Source of the DNA: Nitrosopumilus maritimus SCM1
GTDB taxonomy: Archaea; Thermoproteota; Nitrososphaeria; Nitrososphaerales; Nitrosopumilaceae
Assembly (NCBI RefSeq): GCF_000018465.1
Contig: NC_010085.1
Coordinates: 1,440,001-1,472,000, forward strand
Length of the DNA stretch: 32,000 nucleotides
Direction: 5' to 3'
Below, piece by piece: positions 8,470 to 30,123 of this stretch. The position numbers and the translations under genes are program-made. How positions within the stretch are numbered: position 1 is the first letter of the stretch; every line of letters starts with the position of its first letter. A model generated the notes under the pieces. It saw only the letters and a list, made by a program, of their open reading frames with translations. It made no database searches and was not told the DNA's origin.

Positions 8470-9418
8470 TTAATGTTAAAACAGTAACAATTGGAACAAT
8501 TACAAGTCCAAAGAATAGAATTGAGGTCAATTTCATAATAGATATTGCAGAATGTACGTGTTCTTTTGTAAGAGTTAATTCACCACTACCCAATTCATAA
8601 TGATTTACTTTTTCAAATTTTGTGCCAAGTGCTCCTGCTAATGCAGCCATAGGATATCCTGCATTTGGACTCTCAGTTTTTTTGCCATCACGAATCATAA
8701 TCTTGTAAGATTCTTTCCAGTTGTTTTGTAAAATAGCAGCTGAAATGATCATTACAAGTCCGGTGAGTCTAGATGGAATGTAATTCAATACGGTATCACA
8801 TGTAGCTGCAAACCATCCCAAATTTTTGAAAATATCAGTTTTGTATCCTATCATAGAGTCAGCAGTGTTGATAATTCTATACACAAATGCTCCAGGCAAG
8901 CCAAAAATAGCATAGTAAAAGAGAGGTCCAGTTATTCCATCTACAGTATTTTCACTAACGCTTTCAAGCACGCCTGAAATTACATGATTTTTGTCTAAAT
9001 TGGAGGTATTTCGCTTAACAATCATGGACAGATTCTCTCGTGCAGAATCCAAATTATTCATCTCAAGTGATTCTACTACTGCCATTGCATAGCGTTCCAG
9101 CCCCTTGATTGCAATAGTAGTCTTTAGTAGTAAAGCACCTATCACAACTGAAACTATCAAAGTTATCCAATCAGTTGAAAGTAATGAAATTCCAAAATCC
9201 AAAGTTAATAGTAATGTAACAACTATTCCGGCAGGGATTGTTACTACAAATATTCCACCAAATCTTTCGAGTTTTTGATTTTGATTTTGTCCAAGTGGAG
9301 TTAGTTTTGCAATTAATCCACCAATCCAAGCAGTTGGATGATATCTATTCTTAGGATCTCCAAACACTAAATCTATAACCAATGCAAATCCCACAATTAT
9401 CAAAGACTCTAAAATCAT
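8447..9418 (-). CDS. cbiB: adenosylcobinamide-phosphate synthase
   Basis: 323-aa membrane protein. It has the GDPKNRYHPTAWIG N-terminal motif, SMIGYK, and SPNAGYPMAALAGALG, all typical of CbiB/CobD. Confidence 0.9.
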   Translation of the reverse strand: MILESLIIVGFALVIDLVFGDPKNRYHPTAWIGGLIAKLTPLGQNQNQKLERFGGIFVVTIPAGIVVTLLLTLDFGISLLSTDWITLIVSVVIGALLLKTTIAIKGLERYAMAVVESLEMNNLDSARENLSMIVKRNTSNLDKNHVISGVLESVSENTVDGITGPLFYYAIFGLPGAFVYRIINTADSMIGYKTDIFKNLGWFAATCDTVLNYIPSRLTGLVMIISAAILQNNWKESYKIMIRDGKKTESPNAGYPMAALAGALGTKFEKVNHYELGSGELTLTKEHVHSAISIMKLTSILFFGLVIVPIVTVLTLIGWWIHA

Positions 9419-10254
9419 TTTATCATCCTCTCAATAGCTTTGATATCTAAATTGTTTTTTACGATTTTTGCTAGTTTATCTAGATCTTTATCAATTTTTG
9501 AAATATTCTTTTTTGTCCAAGCAATTTGTTTTGCCTTAACATTTAACGAATCTTCCTCTGGCAAGTCAACTTGCATCATGGGAATAGTTCCGATAACAGG
9601 GATTTTAGTAAGTTGTTTTATCTTTCTAAAGCCTGGTTTTAGCACATCAATGTCTCCTCTGAATTTATTTAATACAAATCCTTTTACTAATTTTTTATAT
9701 TTATTTTCAATTAAATTCATAGTTCCAACTAAACTTGCAAATGAACCACCTTTGTCAATATCTGAAATCAAAAGTACAGATGCATTTGCTTTTTGAGCAA
9801 TTTGCATATTTGCAATATCGTATTTTTGTAAATTAATTTCAGCTGGAGAACCTGCACCTTCTAAAATCACTAGATCATAATTTTTTTTCAGTTTTGATAA
9901 TGAAGTGGTGGCTGCCTTAAGTCCTTTAGATTTTACAAATTTTGTATAGTATTCTTTTGCATGCATTTTCTTGTAATGTTTTCCATTGAGGTAAACTGCA
10001 CTATAGTAATTTCCTAAAGGTTTGAGCATGATGGGGTTAAAATCAGGCTCAATTGGGCATTTGGCGGCAATAGCTTGGATTGCTTGCGCACGAGAAATTT
10101 CAAAATCAGGCGTGGCATAGCCAAAATTAGACATGTTTTGGGACTTGAATGGGGCCACAAGGTATCCTTTTTGTTCAAAGATTCTACACAATGCTGCAAC
10201 CAATGTTGATTTCCCAGCACCAGAAGAAGTTCCTTGAACCATCAAAGGTTTCAT
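9415..10254 (-). CDS. cobQ: cobyric acid synthase homologue, synthetase (ATP-binding) domain only
   Basis: 279 aa. It has MVQGTSSGAGKS, APFKSQNMS, EGAGSPAEINL and NKFRGD motifs of the CobQ/CbiP N-terminal domain. The ORF ends about 45 aa after LPEEDS with no GATase domain. It has ATGA overlaps on both sides. Confidence 0.7.
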   Translation of the reverse strand: MKPLMVQGTSSGAGKSTLVAALCRIFEQKGYLVAPFKSQNMSNFGYATPDFEISRAQAIQAIAAKCPIEPDFNPIMLKPLGNYYSAVYLNGKHYKKMHAKEYYTKFVKSKGLKAATTSLSKLKKNYDLVILEGAGSPAEINLQKYDIANMQIAQKANASVLLISDIDKGGSFASLVGTMNLIENKYKKLVKGFVLNKFRGDIDVLKPGFRKIKQLTKIPVIGTIPMMQVDLPEEDSLNVKAKQIAWTKKNISKIDKDLDKLAKIVKNNLDIKAIERMIK

Positions 10255-11330
10255 GCAATTGCCTCCATTGCAGTTACAAGTTTTAGATTATCTTTATGAG
10301 ATTTTATTGCAATTCGAATATAGTGATTATCTAGTCCACGAAAATTTTTGCAATCACGAATCAATATTTTATGTTTTAACAATTTTTTTTGAAGTTTTGT
10401 TGAATCGTATTTTGTTTTTATTAAAATAAAATTTGTTGAAGAGTCATGACATTCAAAACCTGGAATTCTAGCAATTTTCTTTTTTAGAAAATTTGATTCT
10501 TTTTTTATAATTGATTTTGATTTTGTTAAATGAGATTTATTTTTTATAGCTATCATTCCTGCTTCTTGTGCTAATGCATTAACACTCCAAGGAATTTTTA
10601 TTTTTTTCAGAATATCAATAATTGTTTTTGAACCTATACCATATCCAATTCTTATTCCTGCTAATCCAAACGATTTTGTTAATGATCTTAAAACAAAAAG
10701 ATTATCATATTTTTTTACCAAATTTATCACAGATTGGTTTGATTCAGGAACCAATTCAATAAAACATTCATCAACAAATACAAAACTAGATTTATTTTTT
10801 GCAGCAGATATTATTTTTGTTAATTGTTTTTTTGAGATAATATTTCCTGTGGGATTATTTGGGTTGCATACAAAAACACATCCATTTTTTGGAATCTTTG
10901 AAATAAAAGAATCTATATTTTTGGAAAGATTCATTGTTTTAAAAAAAGTAAATTTACAATCAACGAGTTTTGATGCAGACTCGTATTCGCTAAAAGTAGG
11001 AGTTGGAATCAAAACATGTTTTTTAGATAAAAATGCAGTACAGAAATTATAGAGAATTTCAATCGCACCATTACCCACAACTATGTGAGAATCAGAGAAT
11101 CCAGTGTATTTTTTGAGGCTAGAGAGCAAACTCAGTGAATCAGCATCAGGGTAGTGTTCCATTCCATCTAGTCTTTTTTTCATAGTGGATTTTACAGTGG
11201 ATGGCATTCCAGCAGGACTAGTATTTGAGCTAAAATCTATGACATCAGATTGCTGATTTCCTCCAGAAAATCGGCCCCCATGAGAGATAGGATGGTGTTT
11301 GGTGATGCTTGTTTTGGTCCTTATTTTCAC
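10251..11330 (-). CDS. cobD: L-threonine-O-3-phosphate decarboxylase (class I/II aminotransferase fold)
   Basis: 359 aa. Motifs are HGG...IDFSSNTSPAG, YPD, GNGAIE, NPNNPTG and SLTKSFGLAGIRIGY (PLP lysine). It is the first gene of the cob operon and starts at GTG 11330. Confidence 0.7.
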   Translation of the reverse strand: MKIRTKTSITKHHPISHGGRFSGGNQQSDVIDFSSNTSPAGMPSTVKSTMKKRLDGMEHYPDADSLSLLSSLKKYTGFSDSHIVVGNGAIEILYNFCTAFLSKKHVLIPTPTFSEYESASKLVDCKFTFFKTMNLSKNIDSFISKIPKNGCVFVCNPNNPTGNIISKKQLTKIISAAKNKSSFVFVDECFIELVPESNQSVINLVKKYDNLFVLRSLTKSFGLAGIRIGYGIGSKTIIDILKKIKIPWSVNALAQEAGMIAIKNKSHLTKSKSIIKKESNFLKKKIARIPGFECHDSSTNFILIKTKYDSTKLQKKLLKHKILIRDCKNFRGLDNHYIRIAIKSHKDNLKLVTAMEAIA

Positions 11331-11350
11331 ATAACAAAATAGGAGCAGGC

Positions 11351-11391
11351 GATATAGTATCTTTTGGTAATTTGAATAACGATTATTAATT
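11351..11391. promoter_or_regulatory. divergent promoter region (cob operon / asd)
   Basis: ATATAGTA (11352-11359) is centred about 25 nt from GTG 11330 on the - strand. ATTATTAATT (11382-11391) is centred about 27 nt upstream of ATG 11414. Confidence 0.4.
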
Positions 11392-11413
11392 GAAACCGAT
11401 CAATGATTAATTC

Positions 11414-12490
11414 ATGGAGAAGAAAAGAGTTGCAATTATAGGAGTTACAGGTTCCGTAGGACAGGAATTCGTACAATCTTTGAATAATCACCCATGGTTT
11501 GAAGTAACTCAAATCGCAGCTTCAGAACGCTCTGCAGGTAAGAATTATCTTGATGCCATCAGAAATGAAGGCGGGATCATCATGTGGGATGTAGGAGGCG
11601 AGATCCCAGATTACATCAAAGAAATGACTGTAAAAAGCATTGACGAACTTGATACATCACAATTAGACTTGATATTTTCAGCAGTTGAATCTCAAGCTGC
11701 AAGAGACATTGAAACTAAAATGGCAGCCGAACTACCAGTAGTTTCAACTAGTTCTGCATATAGATACGAAGAAGATGTTCCAATTCTCATTCCAGGTGTA
11801 AATGATGAGCAAGTTGAACTAATAGAAACTCAAAAGAAAAATCGCAACTGGAAAGGATTTGTAACACCATTACCTAACTGTACAACTACAGGTTTAGCAA
11901 TTACATTAAAACCACTACTTGAAAAATATGGTGCAAAAAAAGTCATGATGACTTCAATGCAAGCAATTTCAGGAGGTGGAAAGTCAGGAGTATCTGCCAT
12001 GGGAATTACAGATAACATCTTACCTTACATTCCAAAAGAAGAAGGTAAAGTTAGACTAGAGACAAGAAAAATTTTGGGAAAACTAGTAGATGGTAAAATA
12101 GAGGATGCAGATATTAGAGTTAGTTGTACTTGTACTAGAGTTCCAGTAATTGATGGACATACTGAATCAGTTTTTGTTGAAACTTCAGAAGACATTGATC
12201 CAGCTAAAGCAAAAGAACTCTACAATGGTTACAATAAAAATATCTCAGTTCAAGGATTACCATCAGCTCCTAAAGAATACTATGCATTCCATGAAGACCC
12301 AACAAGACCTCAACCAAGAATGGAAAGAGAAGTTGGTAACGGAATGACTACAACAATTGGCAGAGTTGAAAAAGAAGAATTGTTTGATAAAGGTCTCAAA
12401 TACATGTTATTCTCACATAACAAGAAAATGGGTTCAGCAAAAGGCGCAGTACTCTTAGCTGAAATGTTATACAAAAAAGGTAAGATCTAG
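11414..12490 (+). CDS. asd: aspartate-semialdehyde dehydrogenase (archaeal type)
   Basis: 358 aa. It has the IIGVTGSVGQ Rossmann motif, the active-site LPNCTTTGL Cys and VIDGHTES. Confidence 0.9.
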   Translation: MEKKRVAIIGVTGSVGQEFVQSLNNHPWFEVTQIAASERSAGKNYLDAIRNEGGIIMWDVGGEIPDYIKEMTVKSIDELDTSQLDLIFSAVESQAARDIETKMAAELPVVSTSSAYRYEEDVPILIPGVNDEQVELIETQKKNRNWKGFVTPLPNCTTTGLAITLKPLLEKYGAKKVMMTSMQAISGGGKSGVSAMGITDNILPYIPKEEGKVRLETRKILGKLVDGKIEDADIRVSCTCTRVPVIDGHTESVFVETSEDIDPAKAKELYNGYNKNISVQGLPSAPKEYYAFHEDPTRPQPRMEREVGNGMTTTIGRVEKEELFDKGLKYMLFSHNKKMGSAKGAVLLAEMLYKKGKI

Positions 12491-14473: not shown

Positions 14474-14968
14474 ATGGCTGCTAAGAAAAAAACCACGGTA
14501 AAGAAGAAACCAGTCAAAAAAGCAACTTCAAAGCCAAAATCTAAGGCAACAAAGCCAAAATCAAGCACAAAATCATCTACAAAAAAACCAGAATTTGAGA
14601 AAGCTTGGAAAGAATACAATTCTGCATTAAATGGATGGAAGGAATCTTTGGCACAGTGGCAAAAGGCTACAAATGAAACTTTAATGACATATCACGATGC
14701 ATGTCAAAAAGCTGTAGAATCAGACGCAGAATTATTAAAAAAAGTCAGCTCTAGTTGGGAAAGTACTTGGGAAGAAATTGGTCCTGAATACATCAAACAA
14801 CAAACAAAGATGATTGAAAATATTTTTAAAGAAACCAACATTGAATCAATTAAAAAATTCAATGAACAATGGGAGAAATTCCTCAAAACATCAGGAGATG
14901 ATTCAATCATGGCATATCAAGAAGCTATAAAGAGATTCAATCAAGCCTGGCAATCAGGTCAAATGTAG
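14474..14968 (+). CDS. Lys-rich tail + Trp-rich helical protein (paralogue of 18608-19021)
   Basis: 164 aa. The N-terminal 39 aa are K/T/S/P-rich. The remainder aligns end to end by eye with the 137-aa protein at 18608-19021 (WKEYNSALNGWK / WQEYTKSLENWK; FNEQWEKFLKTSG..MAYQEAIKRFNQAW / FVENWQKSLSSSG..NAYGEMMKKFTETW). Confidence 0.7.
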   Translation: MAAKKKTTVKKKPVKKATSKPKSKATKPKSSTKSSTKKPEFEKAWKEYNSALNGWKESLAQWQKATNETLMTYHDACQKAVESDAELLKKVSSSWESTWEEIGPEYIKQQTKMIENIFKETNIESIKKFNEQWEKFLKTSGDDSIMAYQEAIKRFNQAWQSGQM

Positions 14969-14980
14969 TTTTTAAAATAA

Positions 14981-16726
14981 CTATTTTTTCATTTTTCCTA
15001 TACGAAAGACTTTACAATTACATGTTGAACATGTGCCCTTTACTGCAGGACGACCATTTTTCATAATTGTTTCTTCAGGATTTTTGATTTTTCTTTTTGT
15101 TTTACATTTAACACAGTAAGCTTCTATGGAAGAAGTTTCTGAAGAAATTTTTGAAGACTGTTCAAGTTTTTTCTCAATCTCATCTAATTTTTTATTTTGT
15201 TTTTGTAATGTTTGAATAATTTCATGTTCAATATCAGCAGATTCTAATTTTTCAATTTCTTTTTCTAGTTCTCTTACTCTTGAAATTTGTTCTTCTGTCG
15301 CTTCATCAGAAGGATGCAGTTTTGAAGTTAATTCATTTTCTAATTCATCAATTTGATCTTCTAAATCATTAAATTCAGAATATTCCTCAACTATAGGCTC
15401 AACTTCAGGCTCAGATTTTATTTCTGGAACAGGTTTTTCAGATAATTTAGTTTCTAATTCATCAATTTGTTTTTGAAGTTCATCTAATTGTTCAAATTGT
15501 TCAGGAGTAGCTTCCTCTTCTAGTTCTGGTTTAGATTCTAACTCCTGGATTTGTTTCTCTAATTGTTCAAATTGTTCAAATTGTTCAGGAGTAGCTTCTT
15601 CATCTTCTAGTTCTGGAGCTAAATCAAGTTCCTGTGGAAGTTCTTCTGCAGATTCTTTTGGTAATGAACCTCTAGGACTTGGAGGAGCTGGTTCTGGTTT
15701 AGATTCTAACTCCTGGATTTGTTTCTCTAATTGTTCTAATCTTGCTAATTGTTCAGGAGTAGCTTCCTCTTCTTCGGGTTCTGGTTTAGATTCTAACTCC
15801 TGGATTTGTTTCTCTAATTGTTCTAATCTTGCTAATTGTTCAGGAGTAGCTTCCTCTTCTTCGGGTTCTGGTTTAGATTCTAACTCCTGGATTTGTTTCT
15901 CTAATTGTTCTAATCTTGCTAATTGTTCAGGAGTAGCTTCCTCTTCTTCGGGTTCTGGAATTGGTTCGTCTGCAACTGGTTCTGGAGCTAAATCAAGTTC
16001 CTGTGGAAGTTCTTCTGCAGATTCTTTTGGTAATGAGCCTCTAGGACTTGGAGGAGCTGGTTCTGGTTTAGATTCTAACTCCTGGATTTGTTTCTCTAAT
16101 TGTTCTAATCTTGCTAATTGTTCAGGAGTAGCTTCCTCTTCTTCGGGTTCTGGAATTGGTTCGTCTGCAACTGGTTCTGGAGCTAAATCAAGTTCCTGTG
16201 GAAGTTCTTCTGCAGATTCTTTTGGTAATGAACCTCTAGGACTTGGAGGAGCTGGTTCTGGAATTGGTTCGTCTGCAACTGGTTCTGGAGCTAAATCAAG
16301 TTCCTGTGGAAGTTCTTCTGCAGATTCTTTTGGTAATGAACCTCTAGGACTTGGAGGAGCTGGTTCTGGAATTGGTTCGTCTGCAACTGGTTCTGGAGCT
16401 AAATCAAGTTCATCTAGATCAATGCTTGTTACTACAGGTAAATCACCCAGAGAATCTAATTCTACTTTATTTCCGTCAATTCGTAAAAATGGTTCACCAT
16501 CAATTGAAAAAGTTCGGATTCGATGTCCCTGTTTCCAGGAGTTTTTTCCACTGTAAATTGTGATATAAGAAATTCCGTTCTTGATGTCAGACGAAATAGT
16601 TAGTCGGTCAACAGGAGTTCCTTTAGTAATCCCCTTGTCGGTATCCTGATGTCTAATAGCAACAGAAATCAAATGGTTGGCATCATAACTGACTTCAGAA
16701 ATTAGATAGTCAGCCCATTTATCCAT
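14981..16726 (-). CDS. acidic tandem-repeat protein: DUF3892-like N-domain, Pro/Glu-rich and coiled-coil modules, C-terminal C4 zinc ribbon (DUF5679-like)
   Basis: 581-aa ORF. The globular N-terminal ~100 aa ends ...DGNKVELDSLGDLP. The core is made of LDLAPEPVADEPIPEPAPPSPRGSLPKESAEELPQE and EEEEATPEQLARLEQLEKQIQELESKPEP modules. The C-terminus is YCVKCKTKRKIKNPEETIMKNGRPAVKGTCSTCNCKVFRIG. DUF names are from memory. Confidence 0.85.
   Translation of the reverse strand: MDKWADYLISEVSYDANHLISVAIRHQDTDKGITKGTPVDRLTISSDIKNGISYITIYSGKNSWKQGHRIRTFSIDGEPFLRIDGNKVELDSLGDLPVVTSIDLDELDLAPEPVADEPIPEPAPPSPRGSLPKESAEELPQELDLAPEPVADEPIPEPAPPSPRGSLPKESAEELPQELDLAPEPVADEPIPEPEEEEATPEQLARLEQLEKQIQELESKPEPAPPSPRGSLPKESAEELPQELDLAPEPVADEPIPEPEEEEATPEQLARLEQLEKQIQELESKPEPEEEEATPEQLARLEQLEKQIQELESKPEPEEEEATPEQLARLEQLEKQIQELESKPEPAPPSPRGSLPKESAEELPQELDLAPELEDEEATPEQFEQFEQLEKQIQELESKPELEEEATPEQFEQLDELQKQIDELETKLSEKPVPEIKSEPEVEPIVEEYSEFNDLEDQIDELENELTSKLHPSDEATEEQISRVRELEKEIEKLESADIEHEIIQTLQKQNKKLDEIEKKLEQSSKISSETSSIEAYCVKCKTKRKIKNPEETIMKNGRPAVKGTCSTCNCKVFRIGKMKK
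15522..16409 (-). repeat. nested in-frame tandem repeats: 108-bp module A and 87-bp module B
   Basis: B copies at 15690-15776, 15777-15863, 15864-15950 and 16059-16145 are identical by eye. A copies are at 15951-16058 (1 synonymous difference), 16146-16253 and 16254-16361. Partial A copies are at 15609-15689 and 16362-~16409. A diverged B copy is at 15522-15608. Confidence 0.95.
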
Positions 16727-18607: not shown

Positions 18608-19021
18608 TTATTTGGATTTTGGCCACATTGAGCCCCATGTTTCGGTGAATTTTTTCATCATTTCACCATATGCATTCATCTGTTCTAATCCAGATGAACT
18701 AAGACTCTTTTGCCAATTTTCAACAAATTGTTTGAAAGTAGACATGTTACTATCATTGAGAGCTTTTTGCCAGTTCTCACTAAATTCTTTAAAAGAATTC
18801 ATTCCAGCATCAGTCATTGCTTTTTGCCAGTTTTCTCCAAATAATTTCATGGTTTCATTACTTGATTCAATGCTTGCTTTTTCCCAAACCTCATTAAATC
18901 TAGATTGCATCTCAGTGCTAGCAGTTTGAATCTGCTCAAAGAGAGATTTCCAATTTTCAAGTGATTTGGTATATTCTTGCCACAATGAATCCCATTCATT
19001 ATTTTTTTCTTGGTCAGACAT
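18608..19021 (-). CDS. Trp-rich helical repeat protein (paralogue of 14474-14968)
   Basis: 137 aa with 10 Trp and three tandem 19-aa repeats containing ENWQK. See the paralogue alignment under 14474-14968. Confidence 0.7.
   Translation of the reverse strand: MSDQEKNNEWDSLWQEYTKSLENWKSLFEQIQTASTEMQSRFNEVWEKASIESSNETMKLFGENWQKAMTDAGMNSFKEFSENWQKALNDSNMSTFKQFVENWQKSLSSSGLEQMNAYGEMMKKFTETWGSMWPKSK
18686..18856 (-). repeat. 3 x 57-bp (19-aa) imperfect in-frame repeat
   Basis: + strand tgcca anchors at 18711, 18768 and 18825 give a 57-bp period. The peptides are ETMKLFGENWQKAMTDAGM / NSFKEFSENWQKALNDSNM / STFKQFVENWQKSLSSSGL. Confidence 0.85.
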
Positions 19022-21295: not shown

Positions 21296-21742
21296 TTATG
21301 CTTTTATTGCTATTGATTCACTTTCTTGGGAGGCATCAGCTATGTTGTTTGGATTTTTTTTGCAGTTCTTTTGATGTTTGTCTAGATAAACAAAAGATTT
21401 CTGACAATACTCACATAGTGTTTTTTCCTTTGTCTTTGTAGCTTTTGATTTTTTTGTTTTAGATTTTGTAGTTTTTGCTTTTACTGCAATCTCTTCGGTT
21501 TCTGGTTGAACTTCAACAGATTTTGCTTCAACAGCATCAGCCTCAACTCTTGCACGTAATTTGGCTTTGTATTTCAAATTACGTGGTTTAGTTCTTAATC
21601 TATAGCCACAACATGGACACCATAGTCCTTCCCATTTGATGAATATTTCACAAATTTGACATCGACGTTGTCCAGAAGCATATCTTCCGGTTCCAACAGG
21701 CTTTTGAGCCTTGTATCTTACACAAATTCCTTTACAAGTCAT
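21296..21742 (-). CDS. zinc-finger protein with Lys-rich linker
   Basis: 148 aa. The N-terminal Cys cluster is C-x3-C...C-x2-C...C-x-C-C (CKGIC...CQIC...WCPCCGYRLR). It is followed by a K/T/S-rich linker (KAKTTKSKTKKSKATKTKEK) and a C-terminal CEYCQKSFVYLDKHQKNC C2HC-like motif. Confidence 0.7.
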   Translation of the reverse strand: MTCKGICVRYKAQKPVGTGRYASGQRRCQICEIFIKWEGLWCPCCGYRLRTKPRNLKYKAKLRARVEADAVEAKSVEVQPETEEIAVKAKTTKSKTKKSKATKTKEKTLCEYCQKSFVYLDKHQKNCKKNPNNIADASQESESIAIKA

Positions 21743-29868: not shown

Positions 29869-30123
29869 TTAACGATTAGAAAGTTTTTTTGATTTCACAA
29901 ATGCCCAAATCTTTTTGGTCATTTCACTTGGGGCAATTGGTTTTTTACCAAATATTTGTTCAGCAGTTTCTTTGCGACCTGCAAAACTAATGGCATATCC
30001 ACCAAATGCTGGTTTCTTTGCTTTTGATTTGGTTGCTTTCTTTTTTGGTGCAGCCTTTTTCTTTGGTGCAGCCTTCTTTTTTGTGGTAGTTTTTCTTTTG
30101 GTTGTTTTCTTTTTTACTGCCAA
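29869..30123 (-). CDS. Lys-rich small basic protein with C-terminal half-SWIB/MDM2-like segment
   Basis: 84 aa. The N-terminus is MAVKKKTTKRKTTTKKKAAPKKKAAPKKKATKSKAKK. The C-terminal IFGKKPIAPSEMTKKIWAFVKSKKLSN aligns by eye with the SWIB core (e.g. chlamydial IVGAGPMPRTEIIKKMWDYIKKNGLQD, recalled from memory). Confidence 0.6.
   Translation of the reverse strand: MAVKKKTTKRKTTTKKKAAPKKKAAPKKKATKSKAKKPAFGGYAISFAGRKETAEQIFGKKPIAPSEMTKKIWAFVKSKKLSNR

Follow-up and report, generated by a model that had tools for sequence, protein, structure and literature searches.

Long, near-identical repeats within coding sequence are known from the alpha C protein of group B Streptococcus, which carries identical 246-bp repeats, and from the intragenic repeats of the Staphylococcus aureus spa X-region and of yeast FLO1. 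A comparable array was found in a 32,000-nucleotide stretch of Nitrosopumilus maritimus SCM1 (NC_010085.1, positions 1,440,001 to 1,472,000; hereafter the window, in which coordinates are counted from the first letter). It lies entirely within a complete gene on the minus strand at 14981–16726 (1746 bp), which was delimited by its open reading frame (ORF), its homologues and the conserved gene order, and which encodes a 581-amino-acid (aa) 'DUF5679 domain-containing protein' of Nitrosopumilus. The array resembles the three described systems in its long, in-frame and near-identical units, in a copy number that varies between strains, and in the length polymorphism attributed to unequal recombination or slippage. 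However, the proteins of those systems are secreted or lie at the surface and face immune or adhesion selection, whereas no signal peptide or membrane segment was seen by eye in the window protein. Its array also stands in a core, syntenic archaeal locus and interleaves three cassette types instead of repeating one unit. We consider it likely that this is a real in-frame coding minisatellite in a core Nitrosopumilus gene, whose cassettes are gained, lost and homogenised by recombination. Concerted evolution of an in-frame coding repeat is a well-known process; what is new is its occurrence in an uncharacterised archaeal protein found throughout a genus.

Direct sequence comparison gave four identical copies of an 87-bp unit, B, at 15690–15776, 15777–15863, 15864–15950 and 16059–16145, and three copies of a 108-bp unit, A, at 15951–16058, 16146–16253 and 16254–16361. 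The full A copies differed only at 16037 (G vs. A), which on the coding strand reads GGC vs. GGT, both Gly. A partial A at 15609–15689 corresponded to A positions 28–108 except for its first base (A, not G), another partial A ran for 50 bp from 16362 up to 16411, and a diverged B at 15522–15608 agreed with B in 78 of 87 bases. Tandem Repeats Finder recovered periods of 87, 108 and 195 bp at 99–100% match, and the near-perfect repeat tract measured ~890 bp. The preliminary description, made from the letters of the window, had reported these units and suggested the Tandem Repeats Finder check, and its account of the B copies and of the diverged copy was exact. Its A copies and its partial A at 15609 were also correct, including the single synonymous change, but that change had been put at ~16036, and the partial A at 16362 had been given as 48 bp. 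It had further claimed one octamer at every unit boundary, and this was confirmed: GGTTCTGG occurred 12 times, always on the plus strand and at boundaries within 15690–16396, AGTTCTGG marked the two diverged boundaries at 15522 and 15609, and neither was found in the 32-kb window away from these 14 boundaries. Its view that B is inserted inside A was an effect of the unit phase chosen.

When the protein was split after every Pro-Glu-Pro (PEP), the array could be read more simply as three cassettes without nesting, a1 (27 bp), a2 (81 bp) and b (87 bp), with A equal to a1 plus a2 on the plus strand. Each cassette terminates in Pro-Glu-Pro, encoded by CCAGAACC. The peptides are VADEPIPEP for a1, APPSPRGSLPKESAEELPQELDLAPEP for a2 and EEEEATPEQLARLEQLEKQIQELESKPEP for b; a2 contains the conserved motif PRGSLPKES..ELPQELDL (genus-wide form RGSLPK[ED]S..ELPQELDL), and b is a short amphipathic helix. 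The order in the protein is a2* a1 a2 a1 a2 a1 b a2 a1 b b b a2 b' b'', and beyond b'' lie B-like helices that are older and diverged. The array units of 27, 81, 87, 108 and 195 bp are all multiples of 3 and all lie in one uninterrupted ORF.

Along the minus strand, the array begins with a2* (16389–16411), a partial cassette of 23 bp ending in ..LDLAPEP, at which point the array passes into the unique linker that follows the N-terminal domain. Unit alignment and the PEP split placed the a1 copies at 16362–16388, 16254–16280, 16146–16172 and 15951–15977, and the first two a2 copies at 16281–16361 and 16173–16253; unit alignment placed the third, which carries the only internal difference (G at 16037), at 15978–16058, and the fourth at 15609–15689. 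The first b copy (16059–16145) was predicted as a 19-residue helix at residues 201–219, with a block predicted local distance difference test (pLDDT) score of ~80, and the three tandem b copies (15690–15950) as helices at 266–284, 295–312 and 324–341. One irregularity alone is left under the cassette reading: the fourth a2 has PEL at its end, and b' comes next without an intervening a1. The b' unit (15522–15608) is mosaic: the 5' coding part, TTTGAACAATT included, agrees with b'' and the last 47 bp agree with b, and a 9-bp micro-repeat in three copies (15561–15587) sits at the join. Judged from this pattern, b' is the apparent footprint of an unequal exchange in which an old B unit recombined with a young one. 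The remaining, non-repeated coiled-coil part (15149–15521) comprises b'' and three further helices, predicted at 408–429, 446–470, 478–496 and 499–526.

Within a single genome, copies of a cassette resembled one another more closely than they resembled those of other genomes. At the DNA level, a2 cores shared 99–100% identity within a genome and 81–97% between genomes, and each 108-bp unit showed 5–11 fixed differences between genomes, 0–2 variable sites within a genome and no shared polymorphism. Synonymous sites were also identical within genomes. Lineage-specific forms of a1 were present in every copy, such as VADEPIPEP four times in the window and VTDEPIPEP twice in P0001, and the ends of b varied in the same way (ESKPEP in the window, ESQPEP four times in P0023/L167, ESMPEP twice in L003 and ESAPEP twice in P0010). 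The multi-copy layout of L002 is collinear with that of the window, but every copy differs between the two; homogenisation of copies already present, by concerted evolution, is therefore likelier than one recent burst.

The same three PEP-ended cassettes occurred throughout the genus, in differing numbers and orders. In the complete chromosome L002, the best species representative (N-domain protein 94% identical), the 499-aa protein has the first nine cassettes as in the window and then b a2 a1 b''. The L003 protein (506 aa) interleaves the cassettes differently, that of L014 (645 aa) contains a2 ten times together with runs of VAEPEP, P0003 (723 aa) has seven a2-type and nine B-type motifs, and many relatives have one a2 and one b. 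At least eight architectures were found among the 24 relatives whose N-terminal domain was at least 90% identical. Two loci from separate runs of one sequencing project (L176 and L166), with flanks 99.6–99.8% identical, differed by exactly one 195-bp unit, and L177 (a 2.25-Mb contig) differed from L058 (a short-read contig of a metagenome-assembled genome, MAG), with flanks 99.7% identical, by one 93-bp b unit. The short-read k147 contig L001, 96–98.5% identical to the window, had only a2* a1 a2 a1 b b'' (367 aa), and L167, with a flank 96.4% identical, had an independent b-b-b run in a different order. The L167 contig (ENA ERZ25073763 ctg126484, 65 kb; positions 1–2900) cuts the gene inside a b cassette and continues into unrelated DNA with its own low-complexity repeats, which reflects either a chimeric contig or an insertion.

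These comparisons agreed with what the preliminary description had expected, namely recent expansion or ongoing concerted evolution and a copy number that varies between strains, and the comparison of module order in orthologues that it had proposed gave differing counts and orders alongside near-identical copies within each genome. The array thus has the marks of a coding minisatellite: in-frame units of at least 10 bp lie within an ORF, copies are more alike within than between genomes, and copy number differs between close strains, with the caveat on this last point that some of the assemblies are short-read and their units may have been collapsed.

The changes would arise between the long identical units, whether by unequal homologous recombination, by gene conversion or by slippage during replication. 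With the PEP codons in common, cassettes could join in any order and stay in frame. Since every unit is a multiple of 3, an event would make the spacer longer or shorter and change how many motifs and helices it carries, but would do no more than that and would never switch the gene off. The PEP codons themselves would be mainly a consequence of the conserved peptide and of codon bias, and not the engine of copy-number change.

The alternative that the 8-bp GGTTCTGG itself drives module gain and loss, by slipped-strand mispairing or microhomology-mediated recombination at the PEP codons, is possible but doubtful. A short identical sequence is present at every junction, as a microhomology hotspot would require, and its 12 occurrences compare with an expectation of 0.63 and were reached in 0 of 100 shuffles. 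In addition, many genomes have their cassettes rearranged at PEP boundaries, and within a genome the junction codons are uniform (CCAGAACC in 29 of 29 cases in L014 and 12 of 12 in L002, CCTGAACC in 5 of 5 in L016). However, the identical units of 87, 108 and 195 bp offer far longer homology for unequal exchange. Pro-Glu-Pro is part of the conserved peptide of each cassette across the genus, and with the codon bias of the other ORFs in the window (CCA for 51% of Pro, GAA for 80% of Glu) a conserved PEP predicts CCAGAACC in ~41% of independent cases, while duplication copies CCAGAACC together with the unit. The a1-b, b-a2 and a2-a1 junctions were also found in relatives down to ~75% N-terminal DNA identity; because they are common to distant relatives, these junction types are old, and the action of the octamer is therefore unnecessary in the recent expansion. 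One junction in L003, between VTEEP and EEEEATPEQ, even lies away from PEP. The 8-bp identity thus seems to come largely from peptide conservation and codon bias and would not be needed for copy-number change; the long identical repeats and the codon bias account for the pattern at least as well as the octamer does. The octamer may help cassettes to gain new neighbours on rare occasions, always in frame.

It is unlikely that assembly error has produced the copy number or order given for the window, with the array itself real but identical units over-expanded, collapsed or mis-ordered. Such errors are to be feared at this locus, as the preliminary description had warned, with ~890 bp of near-perfect repeats exceeding the length of short reads. 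Logan contigs matching the window at 100% stopped at both edges of the array: on one side, L162 (SRR6025869) and L164 (SRR000223) ended at 15552 and L163 (ERR14380316) at 15514, and on the other side, L168 (ERR14380316), L171 (SRR6025869) and L172 (SRR000222) started at 16382. Positions 15552 and 16382 each lie 30 nt into sequence shared with other cassettes, an overhang that would fit de Bruijn graph assembly at k=31. Independent read sets thus corroborated the flanks and showed that a repeat is present, but no independent contig spanned the array. No independent full-length copy of the window protein was found when its exact sequence was looked up in the assembly collection, and the independent contigs reached through the two neighbouring proteins, identical to the window, all stopped at the array. 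Because the short-read contigs stop at both edges, it is the source assembly that gives the exact copy number.

Relatives showed the same behaviour. In 24 of 80 genome loci the contig ended within 700 bp after the N-terminal domain, compared with 6 that ended within 700 bp upstream (p=0.0014), and 19 of 51 close metagenome contigs ran off inside the gene. Three MAGs (L004, L036 and L044) had N gaps inside the array, and the single-cell genome L005 had the zinc ribbon in a different frame; these gaps and the frameshift are probably assembly damage. Genes on megabase contigs were longer than those on short-read MAG contigs (median 499 vs. 332 aa, p=0.005). A similar case is described in a report on Mycobacterium tuberculosis Erdman, in which tandem-repeat copy-number variation mis-assembled in references was resolved only by HiFi reads (PMC12817950). 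In both cases copy number varies and short-read or older assemblies err, although the organism and the genes are different ones.

Against an artefact in the window itself, comparably large and perfect arrays were present on megabase or complete contigs (L002, L003, L014 and L177), and the 96% identical relative L167 had its b-b-b run independently. The ORF in the window is intact, and its private synonymous difference and mosaic b' would be hard to obtain from a collapsed or duplicated consensus.

Several points nevertheless weigh against a minisatellite turned over by recombination. The mechanism is read from the pattern of the repeats, the copy number and order in the window are uncorroborated, and the shorter versions in the short-read assemblies L001, L058 and L166 may be collapsed identical units. 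Sequence searches of the PDB with the whole protein, an N-domain profile and a zinc-ribbon profile gave nothing significant, and the best Foldseek match of the N-domain model in the PDB (RuvBL insertion domain, E 0.058, TM 0.34) was not meaningful. Literature searches on DUF5679, on DUF3892 and on tandem repeats in Nitrosopumilus turned up no study that dealt with the protein or the repeat, and none on the function of DUF5679.

A stable, selected array without turnover, whose copies are identical through strong purifying selection at the DNA level, is very improbable. The a2 and b peptides are indeed highly conserved across the genus, and a 66-bp b core is identical in L001, L002 and L003. This reading is, however, largely refuted by synonymous sites that are identical within genomes and carry fixed differences between them, and by architectures that differ between 99.7% identical populations and number at least eight in the closest clade. 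A phase-variable contingency locus with repeat number as an on/off switch would also place perfect tandem repeats within coding sequence, but it can be practically dismissed, as all units are multiples of 3 and keep the frame, and orthologues with different arrays retain the C-terminal zinc ribbon in frame. A clustered regularly interspaced short palindromic repeat (CRISPR) array was ruled out, as the units abut without spacers inside a 581-codon ORF conserved as protein across the genus; a non-coding repeat was likewise ruled out, all units lying in that intact ORF.

From its N-terminus, the protein comprises a beta domain, a spacer that is polyanionic and rich in Pro and Glu, a set of coiled-coil helices and, at its other end, a basic zinc ribbon. 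No plus-strand ORF of at least 80 aa overlapped the array, and the other minus-strand frame across the cassettes was full of stops. A total of 161 homologues were found at E<1e-5, labelled by NCBI as DUF5679 domain-containing protein of Nitrosopumilus; their lengths ranged from 319 to 723 aa (median 360), and the window protein was among the longest. The N-terminal domain (aa 1–97; 16436–16726, minus strand) was conserved, with 81–84% mean column identity in two alignments (A1 and A2), and was modelled by AlphaFold2 (pLDDT 72) as mostly beta strands plus one helix. It was distantly similar to DUF3892: the whole protein scored 14.4 bits (E 0.056) and the isolated domain 18.6 bits, below the Pfam gathering score of 22.3, and 14 of 25 family members gave DUF3892 matches at E up to 1 (best E 5.3e-5), which amounts to a resemblance only. 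In contrast, the C-terminal four-cysteine zinc ribbon (aa 537–576; 14999–15118, minus strand) belongs to Pfam DUF5679, with 43.9 bits against a cut-off of 27 (E 2.6e-11). Its cysteines were invariant (alignment A4), and the last 60 residues contained 15 K+R vs. 5 D+E.

Between these ends, the array is composed of 28% Glu and 18% Pro, with a net charge of -71 over 300 aa. The AlphaFold2 model of the full protein had low overall confidence, as is usual for a protein of this type; beta structure was predicted at both ends, every b cassette as a 19-residue helix (block pLDDT ~80–90), and the a cassettes as coil (pLDDT <45). On this model, the array may be pictured as a bead-on-a-string polyanionic spacer joining a small globular domain to the basic zinc ribbon. 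As a working inference, the protein would be a flexible polyanionic tether or multivalent scaffold from the N-terminal domain to the zinc ribbon, recombination would vary its length and motif number, and the ribbon probably binds nucleic acid. It seems improbable that the three-cassette PEP design is a functional, tunable scaffold in which recombination at the PEP codons sets the number of partner-binding sites and strain differences are adaptive. If that were true, the binding sites would be the conserved short linear motif of a2 and the discrete amphipathic helix of b, set between the DUF3892-like domain, whose family has been predicted to act in conflict systems, and the basic zinc ribbon, and copy number would be adaptive, for example in a virus-host or stress-response context of marine ammonia oxidisers.

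A role of DUF3892 in bacterial defence has been proposed by prediction only (bioRxiv 10.1101/2022.04.27.489752, which cites Burroughs and Aravind 2020). At this locus, a scan with PADLOC and defence models gave no indication of defence, and a defence-system reading was dropped, the NCBIfam/PADLOC matches being only coiled-coil noise (Rad50, SMC and LmuB) far under the cut-offs. Stand-alone proteins of ~100 aa corresponding to the N-terminal domain, with the same DKWADYLIS start, were observed in other Nitrosopumilaceae (L066–L071, L075, L077 and L078), and one complete chromosome (NZ_OY734802.1) carried two N-terminal-domain loci, L047 and L061. A scan of viral contigs found no close viral copy of the gene. 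It found only stand-alone proteins of ~100 aa, 30–33% identical to the N-domain and with the DKWADYLIS start, on predicted viral contigs of IMG/VR (L178–L193; guanine-plus-cytosine (GC) fraction 0.44–0.53); these contigs are probably bacterial, because their GC is much higher than the 33% of the window. The orthologues L022, L027 and L041, on complete or near-complete chromosomes, stop after the coiled-coil, with no DUF5679 ribbon in any frame within 3 kb; the ribbon is therefore dispensable in some lineages.

Across complete Nitrosopumilus MAG chromosomes, the gene order was conserved as aspartate-semialdehyde dehydrogenase, AsnC-type regulator, UbiA prenyltransferase, a 164-aa protein, the array gene, proteins of 127, 227, 221 and 137 aa, thioesterase and UbiD, and the neighbouring proteins were 88–100% identical in the closest genomes. 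Because this order is conserved across the genus, the locus is assigned to the core chromosome and not to an island. The 164-aa (14474–14968, plus strand) and 137-aa (18608–19021, minus strand) proteins on the two sides of the array gene are small, Trp-rich and helical, the former with a Lys-rich N-terminal tail and the latter with ENWQK-type repeats. With 29% identity (E 2e-17) the two are weak paralogues; both keep their position across Nitrosopumilus, and neither belongs to a Pfam family. Further upstream (8474–12490), genes as called on the 100%-matching contig L162 encode CobD/CbiB-like and CbiA-like proteins, an aminotransferase and the aspartate-semialdehyde dehydrogenase, all ordinary core metabolism. 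Two small imperfect tandem repeats were present elsewhere in the window, at 21435–21482 (15 bp, 3.2 copies, 75%) and 30038–30083 (18 bp, 2.6 copies, 85%).

The value of the finding is mainly practical: the locus breaks or corrupts short-read Nitrosopumilus assemblies through contig ends, N gaps and possibly collapsed copies, and for this reason the lengths annotated for this protein in MAGs cannot be relied on. With long reads, strains could be typed at high resolution by means of the array. Concerted evolution of a coding repeat appears to take place in a genus-wide protein of one of the most abundant archaeal groups of the ocean, and the conserved a2 motif (peptide PRGSLPKESAEELPQELDL) and the b helix provide handles for finding the role of that protein.

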